The translations under genes and the position numbers were made by a program. Below are positions 8,382 to 10,146 of a DNA stretch of 64,000 bases, piece after piece; within the stretch, counting starts at the first letter, position 1; every line of letters starts with the position of its first letter. The notes under the pieces were generated by a model. The model did not search any database. It was not told where the DNA came from and saw only the letters and a program-made list of their open reading frames with translations. The stretch lies in the NCBI GenBank assembly GCA_039028615.1, contig JBCCHT010000019.1, positions 128,001 to 192,000 of the forward strand. The letters are read 5' to 3'. This DNA is from Myxococcota bacterium. GTDB lineage: Bacteria > Myxococcota_A > Polyangia > Nannocystales > Nannocystaceae.

Positions 8382-9011
8382 TCAGTCGATCCAGCGGTCC
8401 CAGCGAGGCTCGCGAGTCACCAGCTGGCCGTCTTCGCGGCGGTAGACCTTCCAGTTGCCGTCGCCCTGCTCGATGAGGAACGCCTCGACCGGTCCGAACA
8501 CGTCGTCGAGCTCCTTCGAGGTGCAGGTCGGCAAGAACGCCCGGAGCACGCGCGGGTCGTAGAAACGAAACAGCACCTCGCGCCCTTCGGGCAGGCGCAC
8601 GCGGATCATCCCGGCGAAATGCTCGGAGATGTCGTCCATGGAGGCGCTGCTCCGCAACATGACGCCCCAATTGTGCCCGCGTCCGTAGCGCGCGAAGTAC
8701 CCGGCAAACGGGTAGTGCGAGGCCAGAGCCACCAGGTACGGGGCCACGGCCGCCAGGTCGCGCGGCAAGTCCGTCCCGTACAGACAACGCCAGTCATTCC
8801 CTGACGCGGTGAGCATGGGGAAGACGCGTTCGTCTTGCGCGCCGTCCACCAAACCGAACACCGTGCTGGGCTTGGCCGAGACCTTGATGTTGGACAGAGC
8901 CCGCTTGATGATGCCGTTGATCGTCCGTTTGGTCGTTCTCGACACGTCTCGCCCACTATACGACGTGAGCGACCACCCCCCCAGGCGCGTATGATTATTG
9001 GGCCACGACAC
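8382..9011 (-). CDS. DUF4123 family protein (T6SS effector adaptor/chaperone-like); true start may be downstream
   Basis: GLVDGA...CLY...APYLVAL, WGVMLRS and the family hallmark LFRFYDPRVL. Confidence 0.85.
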   Translation of the reverse strand: MSWPNNHTRLGGWSLTSYSGRDVSRTTKRTINGIIKRALSNIKVSAKPSTVFGLVDGAQDERVFPMLTASGNDWRCLYGTDLPRDLAAVAPYLVALASHYPFAGYFARYGRGHNWGVMLRSSASMDDISEHFAGMIRVRLPEGREVLFRFYDPRVLRAFLPTCTSKELDDVFGPVEAFLIEQGDGNWKVYRREDGQLVTREPRWDRWID

Positions 9012-9060: not shown

Positions 9061-9525
9061 ATGCAGTGGCTCTTGCGCGGTTCCCAGCAACTCATGCTCA
9101 GCACCACCCGGGCGGCCCCGTTTGCGGGCGCCGTGATGGTCAACGACCCGCACTCCGCCGCGGCCATGCTCAGGACCGTCTCGTTCGATCCCGAGCAAAT
9201 GAAGACGCTGCGCCAGATCCACACCGATCTGACCGAGAGCCACAACTCCCGCACTCGCTCCGACACGCTCGTCGTGGCCGAGATCATGAGCTTGCTGGCC
9301 ACCTCGCGCCTGTACCTGTTCGAGCAAACGCGGGACTTCGGCCTCACCTTCGATGTCCCCGAGAACGAGGACCAAGATCTCGCCGAAGACGCGGTGGTGC
9401 TCGAAGCCGAGCCCGAGCCGCCTCCCCCCGAGCCCAAGCCCAGCCCGGTGGTGCTGGCCCAGGCCGACGCTCTGAAGAAGGCCGCCGAATCGGGCTCACC
9501 GTTCTGCGAGGAATGAGTGGACTGA
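9061..9525 (+). CDS. T6SS-associated-type protein with C-terminal QAxxLxxAAxxGxPFCEE(C/U) motif; candidate selenoprotein (TGA 9514-9516 read as Sec, otherwise the ORF ends at 9516)
   Basis: AAGGAG RBS; ends QADALKKAAESGSPFCEE-TGA-GTG-GAC-TGA; hairpin starts 11 nt after the first TGA. Confidence 0.7.
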
Positions 9526-9527
9526 CT

Positions 9528-9546
9528 GCTCCCGCGTGACGGGAGC
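9528..9546 (+). promoter_or_regulatory. Candidate bacterial SECIS hairpin
   Basis: GCTCCCG-CGTGA-CGGGAGC; 11-nt spacer from the TGA; G in second loop position. Confidence 0.5.
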
Positions 9547-9744: not shown

Positions 9745-10146
9745 ATGAGCAAGGACCACGACGACAGCGCAATCGACGAACTGGACGCGAAGACCCTCGA
9801 GTACTTCCGCGGCAAGCTGACCGCGGCGCGGGACGAGCTGCTCGAGCGCAACCGGTCCCGTCTCTCCGATGTGCTCGACCACGACGAGGTCCTCAACGAC
9901 GAGGCCGACCACGCCGAGGCCGATCGAGCCCAGCAGTTCGAGCTACGCCTGGCCGACAAGGATCGCAAGCTGCTGCGCCTCATCGAGCATGCGCTCGGCA
10001 AGATCGACATCGGCGAGTACGGCCTGTGCGAAGGCACGGGTGAGCTCATTCCCCGTGCACGGCTAGAGCTGCGCCCCTGGGCGCGCTACTCCGTCGAGCA
10101 CAAGATGACGCTCGAGCGCGACCGAGCCCTCCACGCCGGGGGCTGA
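9745..10146 (+). CDS. dksA: DksA/TraR family transcription factor, Zn-finger-less (DksA2-like)
   Basis: Coiled-coil tip DEADHA (DxxDxA); GEYGLCEGTGELIPRARLELRPWARYSVE keeps only 1 of 4 Cys. Confidence 0.85.
   Translation: MSKDHDDSAIDELDAKTLEYFRGKLTAARDELLERNRSRLSDVLDHDEVLNDEADHAEADRAQQFELRLADKDRKLLRLIEHALGKIDIGEYGLCEGTGELIPRARLELRPWARYSVEHKMTLERDRALHAGG

Follow-up and report, generated by a model that had tools for sequence, protein, structure and literature searches.

We identify, in a 64,000-nucleotide stretch of Myxococcota DNA (the window), a gene whose apparent stop codon very probably encodes selenocysteine (Sec) near the end of a short tail that is predicted to dock onto a DUF4123 adaptor of type VI secretion systems (T6SS). 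UGA-containing tails of this kind, borne by VgrG, PAAR, and small proteins, likely constitute an undescribed selenoprotein family, because a conserved UGA, with a SECIS-type hairpin after it, replaces the tail's last Cys. The reading we prefer combines Sec insertion, docking to DUF4123, and redox control by a Cys-Sec pair, and we put its overall probability at about 0.72. Features of the window that bear on this reading are given in Table 1.

Table 1. Coordinates of the predicted selenoprotein gene, its parts, and its neighbors in the window
Feature	Position	Strand	Details
Divergent DUF4123 (Tap/TecT-type) adaptor gene	8382..9011	-	PF13503, E 6.5e-30; likely start ATG 8945; predicted tail partner
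Predicted 154-aa selenoprotein gene	9061..9525	+	U152; end ...PFCEE-U-VD-stop
N-terminal beta/alpha domain, residues ~1-93	9061..9339	+	Common to many other small tail carriers
Docking tail QAxxLxxAAxxG-x-PF-CxxU (predicted)	9460..9522	+	Helix 129-144, then GxPF and Cys149/Sec152 pair
UGA, inferred selenocysteine codon	9514..9516	+	Aligns to second Cys of CxxC
Bacterial SECIS-type hairpin, just past true stop codon	9528..9546	+	7-bp stem, loop CGUGA, loop 18 nt after UGA
dksA/traR zinc-finger gene	9745-10146	+	Downstream of the selenoprotein gene; CxxC-type site reads CEGT

A UGA codon in place of a conserved cysteine

The open reading frame at 9061 to 9516 (+) has the C terminus QADALKKAAESGSPFCEE, followed by TGA (9514 to 9516), GTG, GAC, and a second TGA (9523 to 9525), which is the arrangement that the original prediction had described. 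Database entries of this protein hold a 151-aa truncated form. The prediction had also placed the first TGA exactly on the last Cys of a tail motif, and comparison with homologs bears this out: orthologs from the sister genus read PFCEE-C-ECD/E, with a TGC codon at the aligned, conserved Cys, no hairpin, and the same divergent arrangement with a DUF4123 gene. All orthologous proteins recovered by the first search stop exactly at PFCEE (9/9), and the same-genus genomes uniformly carry TGA-GTG-GAY-stop (Val-Asp-stop) together with the hairpin (5/5). The UGA form is also present in a cultured strain of the genus, Paraliomyxa miuraensis SMH-27-4 (L027, identical to L018), where the stem differs in sequence, pairing is kept, and the loop is GGU. 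Sequencing error was rejected as the source of the TGA, which is common to 8 aligned orthologs; the single sequencing run found across the window stretch is perhaps the DNA's own source and hence not independent.

In the model of the window protein, the N-terminal domain is folded and is joined by a loose linker to a helix at residues 129 to 144 (mean pLDDT 89). The N-terminal domain matched no family in Pfam or NCBIfam and gave no clear match in a fold search (best Z 5.6; Foldseek E > 0.6), and the ESM Atlas gave three unnamed clusters, all without Pfam. A weak second copy of this domain (E 1.7e-4) was seen elsewhere in the window's genome, G000, at C17:13129 (+), where it opens a long ORF that lacks the tail.

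Distribution of the UGA tail

Among 116 collected proteins, 80 carry only Cys after PFCEx, 25 end at that point, 6 are mixed, and 5 are without the pattern. Because just a few codons separate the UGA from the real stop, databases hold truncated forms (the 25/116 that end at PFCEx) and the family is easily missed; genes with several repeats of the tail are likewise cut at the first repeat. A scan of metagenomes for the pattern AAxxGxPFCEx plus TRR returned at least 122 matches at at least 120 loci. Among the matches listed (122), the codon was TGA in 108, TGG in 10, TAA in 2, and TAG in 2. The original prediction had been exposed to the possibility that PFCEE followed by TAA or TAG is common, which did not materialize: those codons account for 4/122 of the matches listed, and none of the four is followed by a hairpin (0/4). 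A scan of viral contigs returned one match, apparently a chance one, which the tail HMM did not score.

We then considered the 96 distinct TGA tails among the matches listed. Their next in-frame stop is TAA in 41, TGA in 33, and TAG in 21 (none in 1), and it lies no more than four codons away in 67/96. Among the matches listed, every one that reached 18 bits with the tail HMM was a TGA tail (91 distinct); at 15 bits, 10/11 of the non-TGA matches listed also passed, and so the division between TGA and non-TGA tails depends on the HMM cutoff.

A SECIS-type hairpin follows the UGA

As had been predicted, a 7-bp hairpin begins 11 nt after the first TGA. It consists of the stem GCTCCCG (9528 to 9534), the loop CGTGA (9535 to 9539), and the stem CGGGAGC (9540 to 9546), and its folding energy of −13.1 kcal/mol (z −2.7) was equaled in 6/200 shuffles. 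A published model of the bacterial SECIS specifies a loop of 3 to 9 nt with G within its first two positions, a stem of 4 to 16 bp, an MFE of −7.5 or lower, and a distance of 16 to 37 nt from the UGA (PMC13188914). The window hairpin fits this model in loop (5 nt, G second and then U), stem (7 bp), energy, and distance (18 nt). An Rfam search returned no match up to an E value of 10. In work on recombinant thioredoxin reductase, a SECIS past the stop codon can reportedly direct Sec insertion near the terminus.

To quantify such hairpins, a detector was used that accepts a stem of at least 6 bp, a loop at 16 to 24 nt, and a G as the first or second base of the loop. It passed 71/96 of the distinct metagenomic TGA tails among the matches listed, compared with a mean of 2.7 and a maximum of 7 in 30 rounds of shuffling; the 25/96 that it missed include some chance matches and some shorter stems. 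A near-identical detector passed 0/20 Cys tails, 0/11 distinct non-TGA matches among those listed, and 339/5098 (6.6%) of the other ORF-ending TGAs of G000. The hairpin after the TGA tail is not a chance occurrence, given 71/96 TGA tails against a 6.6% background and 0/20 Cys tails. Its stems comprise 27 distinct hexamers, and no T run was found behind the 71 detector-positive hairpins (both among the matches listed). An intrinsic terminator was ruled out by the missing T run and by the absence of any called on the + strand.

These data bear on one alternative, namely, that the UGA is an ordinary stop, that the second Cys has been lost, and that the hairpin acts as a terminator, a stabilizer, or a means of translational coupling to the DUF4123 gene. 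Read-through gains just 3 residues, the truncated protein retains all residues in confident contact in the docking model (tail residues 27 to 33, GTPFCEE), and GC-rich genomes commonly use UGA as a stop. However, some TGA-tail loci have only 44 to 50% GC (metagenome, among the matches listed), and the tail codon is nearly always TGA whereas the next stop draws on all three codons. The hairpins lack a T run; the window gene keeps its hairpin where the next gene is dksA, ~200 nt off; Cys tails upstream of DUF4123 have no hairpin; and each internal UGA of the four-repeat proteins described below has a coded hairpin. We consider an ordinary stop very improbable.

A second tail, PFCEE-TGA-GTG-TAG, was observed in G000 at C61:46341-46430 (−), which corresponds to L011:10342-10767. 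It ends a low-complexity Gly/Asp-rich ORF without the N-terminal domain and without DUF4123 nearby, and its hairpin, near-identical to that of the window, starts 9 nt after the UGA.

Tandem UGA tails

Several genes encode the tail more than once in frame. Four PFCEx-TGA repeats are present in L109, L031 (uncultured Desulfobacteraceae), and L171, three in L131 and L158, and two in L057. Most UGAs of these repeat proteins have a hairpin after them that is itself part of the coding sequence (one hairpin of L171 is not the lowest-energy fold), and within repeats, UGA occurs solely at the Cys position. Cys-type proteins show the same layout, with 2 to 6 repeats. Tandem arrays are the strongest genetic evidence for the putative read-through.

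In-frame UGAs of this kind would also be expected if UGA were reassigned genome-wide to Trp or Gly (tables 4/25). We regard this as scarcely credible, since thousands of G000 frames end in TGA, a tRNA-Sec is present, the UGA aligns to Cys rather than Trp, and the repeat proteins confine it to the Cys position within repeats. A further proposal, compatible with the reading that we prefer, is that read-through is conditional: the PFCEE and Sec forms would both be made, in a ratio set by selenium supply, and this ratio would tune cargo release. Sec is the third residue from the end, beyond the modeled contact surface, and in repeat proteins the number of tails would depend on termination. However, Sec decoding generally involves some termination, which does not have to serve regulation, and we consider such tuning rather unlikely.

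Selenium machinery

The window genome (12.3 Mb, 68% GC) encodes selA, selB, and selD, each above the curated cutoff, and a tRNA-Sec, and so combines selA, selB, selC, and selD in one genome. The first elements of the preferred reading can be read from the DNA itself: a UGA for the second Cys of CxxC, a SECIS-type hairpin, and the full Sec machinery. SelB with tRNA-Sec would then very probably decode the UGA, with termination two codons later, and on these grounds we infer selenium incorporation at the UGA.

The original prediction had proposed testing whether the choice of TGA at this codon co-varies with the Sec machinery and with a conserved hairpin. The hairpin does track TGA; co-variation with the machinery is weaker. 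Genomes with TGA tails carry selA in 10/10 cases and selB in 9/10, these 10 representing only three groups of kin. TGA tails in genomes that lack Sec machinery, which would have spoken against the prediction, did not come to light in this set, though the search of G004 (88% complete) gave no selB match. tRNA-Sec was strong in G813, G855, and G005, marginal in G004, and not found over the cutoff in G001 (72% complete). On the Cys side, selA is present in 15/18 Cys-tail genomes from several phyla, with a phylum baseline of 42/80, and the three selA-negative genomes all have Cys tails. Co-variation is consistent with Sec decoding, not decisive, and amounts to weak evidence because 15/18 Cys genomes also carry selA. 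Random genome samples suit such a comparison poorly because the motif is rare (5/401, 3/401, and 3/151); no TAA was found in them by a pattern that could show TAA, not TAG. A family search around G813 returned nothing but G813 itself.

Carriers and T6SS context

The motif had been attributed to proteins of the VgrG/PAAR neighborhood, and its Cys form, QAxxLxxAAxxGxPFCExC, indeed ends PAAR proteins (L030, L035, and L037) and VgrG proteins (L032, L034, and L036, the last confirmed by Pfam). TGA tails end full VgrG proteins (5/5 tested above the TIGR03361 cutoff) and PAAR proteins (7/7 tested match PF05488), and they also occur on small proteins that share the N-terminal domain of the window protein. 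A crude regex split of 106 matches among those listed gave 25 VgrG, 33 PAAR, and 48 small proteins. A DUF4123 gene lies directly downstream in 53/65 of the TGA matches listed that have at least 500 nt of downstream sequence. At one locus (L159), the gene order is tssF-tssG-clpV-vgrG(UGA tail)-DUF4123-PAAR, and this clustering identifies the system as a T6SS.

In the window, the gene adjoins a divergent DUF4123 gene, as the prediction had it (PF13503 match in Table 1). This is the only DUF4123 gene found in G000, and it forms a stand-alone pair with the genome's only full tail carrier. G000 has tssF, tssG, and clpV on C34, and all four of its VgrG proteins are without the tail. Two PAAR queries found no PAAR in G000; ORFs beside its VgrG genes look PAAR-like by eye. 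The window protein stands alone and is neither a VgrG nor a PAAR protein, so we class it as working like a VgrG tail, not as being one; its N-terminal domain would join the tail to a spike or other cargo. The proposal of a CxxU motif in a secretion-spike or cargo-tag module is supported, and the tie to a contractile system is stronger than the window alone could reveal: UGA tails do end full VgrG and PAAR proteins, one of them within a tssF-tssG-clpV cluster. It is refined in two respects: the carrier here is stand-alone, and the likely job of the tail is docking of the DUF4123 adaptor rather than direct cargo tagging.

A small protein starting MLTIRxEQ was often seen after DUF4123 and before variable genes (L046, L054, L062, L101, L159, and seven places in G000). 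It had no Pfam match and may be a split cargo-binding co-adaptor.

Docking model and proposed chemistry of the Cys-Sec pair

The predicted complex of a Cys-ortholog tail with its adaptor, both from G034 rather than from the window, scored 0.90, compared with 0.02 for the best control. The mark for this score was reached by 116/157 solved pairs and 2/215 mismatched pairs, counts that hold roughly; the runs used custom alignments, and a zinc carried along in them lies outside this calibration. The runs agreed in at least 98% of contacts, with a partner pLDDT of at least 84. In the model, the conserved Q, L, AA, G, P, and F of the tail contact invariant or near-invariant adaptor residues. Neither the second Cys, where Sec would sit, nor any Cys or His of the adaptor belongs to the confident contacts, a residue not named there being merely uncertain. 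The adaptor model matches Tap3 (9r8g; E 5e-6), a fold already solved, and this likeness may help the complex score; by sequence, neither tail nor adaptor had a significant solved relative. That the tail docks on the conserved DUF4123 lobe is supported, rather than shown, by the complex model. The tail helix and GxPF would probably bind a conserved DUF4123 groove, a mode of binding published for helix-turn-helix motifs at VgrG C termini.

We give an even chance to the final step of the preferred reading, in which a reversible selenenyl-sulfide between Cys149 and Sec152 would, through its state, control the loading or release of adaptor and cargo. Exchange of Cys for Sec is typical of redox and metal sites, and the exchange seen here lends independent evolutionary support to a chemically active Cys pair. 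If this is true, a docked tail would give a toxin-loading adaptor a selenium-based redox switch. Extended to T6SSs of several phyla, with Sec in VgrG, PAAR, and stand-alone tails (up to 4 Sec per chain), such a switch might set toxin free after delivery through a redox trigger; these would be the first selenoproteins among weapon parts, and killing would be tied to selenium supply. We hold this broader proposal at somewhat short of even odds.

The main rival to a redox switch is metal binding, in which Sec is inserted and the tail docks onto DUF4123, yet CxxU holds Zn or Fe instead of cycling. Tails acting in twos, whether in a VgrG trimer or in tandem repeats, would provide four ligands and so bring several adaptor-cargo units together. 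Tandem arrays of 2 to 6 tails would give CxxC/U pairs, some catalogued families use Sec to bind a metal (PMC13188914), and the partner adaptors (alignment A2) keep Cys141 (60/60), His109 (59/60), and Cys54 (44/60). However, most carriers have a single tail, the adaptor Cys and His residues lie outside the model's confident interface (where, again, absence means only uncertainty), and an Azospirillum VgrG with a CxxC tail has an adaptor that lacks both Cys residues; Cys141 and Cys54 of this adaptor subfamily are absent from TecT as well. We consider metal binding possible, if doubtful. A zinc clasp between the tail and the adaptor Cys and His residues was separately considered and is not favored, given their position outside the confident interface and the Azospirillum adaptor without both Cys.

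Comparison with known systems

DUF4123 (Tap) adaptors bind a helix-turn-helix at the VgrG C terminus (Colautti et al. 2024, PMC11582642). The motifs carry a conserved Cys pair, for which the authors speculated, with data not shown, that a periplasmic disulfide releases the complex; how cargo exits the VgrG-adaptor complex is stated there to be unknown (PMC11582642). The tail described here resembles this motif in being short, in lying at the C terminus after an NSGG linker on VgrG, in its gene being directly upstream of DUF4123, in its conserved Cys pair, and in its predicted binding to the conserved adaptor lobe. This likeness to the VgrG6/VgrG14 motif is one of layout and role, drawn by description rather than by sequence alignment. 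Unlike that motif, our tail has UGA with a SECIS-type hairpin at the second Cys, occurs also on PAAR and on a stand-alone family, and forms arrays of up to 4 Sec tails; the accessible text of PMC11582642 has 0 matches for "selen." An annotated Azospirillum VgrG upstream of DUF4123 carries the window-type tail in its Cys form. The PAAR-TecT-co-TecT-TseT system of P. aeruginosa (L164; PMC11582642) is similar in that a short DUF4123 without a cargo lobe is bound to a CxxC-bearing C-terminal extension. It differs in that the CxxC of its PAAR tail precedes the helix, the tail has no profile match to that of the window and no UGA, and TecT lacks the two Cys of window-type adaptors.

As in other bacterial CxxU selenoproteins (GrdA, SelW-like, AhpD-like, and the TonB receptor FCYXU type; PMC13188914), CxxU aligns to CxxC, a bacterial SECIS-type element comes right after the UGA, and Cys homologs outnumber the others (80 Cys-only versus 25 truncated among the 116 proteins). 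Unlike in the catalogued CxxU families, as described in the available part of PMC13188914, the window-type SECIS usually lies past the stop codon. That 2026 catalogue lists 119 families in its Table 1, none of them a component of a secretion spike or a peptide for protein docking; the BSepDB main text, as available (PMC13326102), has 0 matches for PAAR or Vgr; NCBIfam 20.0 has no model for the window protein or 52 family members; and the literature searched contained no paper on Sec in VgrG or PAAR tails. The tail-bearing proteins are likely a real, undescribed selenoprotein family that unites two known kinds. This family is widespread and apparently uncatalogued, and it would represent a new functional class, a spike docking peptide rather than an enzyme, whose natural Cys and Sec tail pairs are available for testing the chemistry of the Cys pair.

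Other UGA codons with hairpins in the genome

Near ORF ends elsewhere in G000, UGA codons with strong hairpins were observed in DDPCPDDM-U-DERD (C12), GVMCCAD-U-A (C20), FIPPAG-U-TPA (C22), EQCSCS-U (C23), and IPNCTYS-U (C52); these may be other near-terminal selenoproteins or chance occurrences, at a background of 6.6%. Three other ORFs combine UGA with a SECIS-like hairpin of the same geometry as that in the window, in the contexts LAYFATW-U-TSC (C14), LAYFATF-U-PVC (C50), and WSDFQ-U-PYC (C68), and presumably resemble thioredoxin-fold UxxC selenoproteins.
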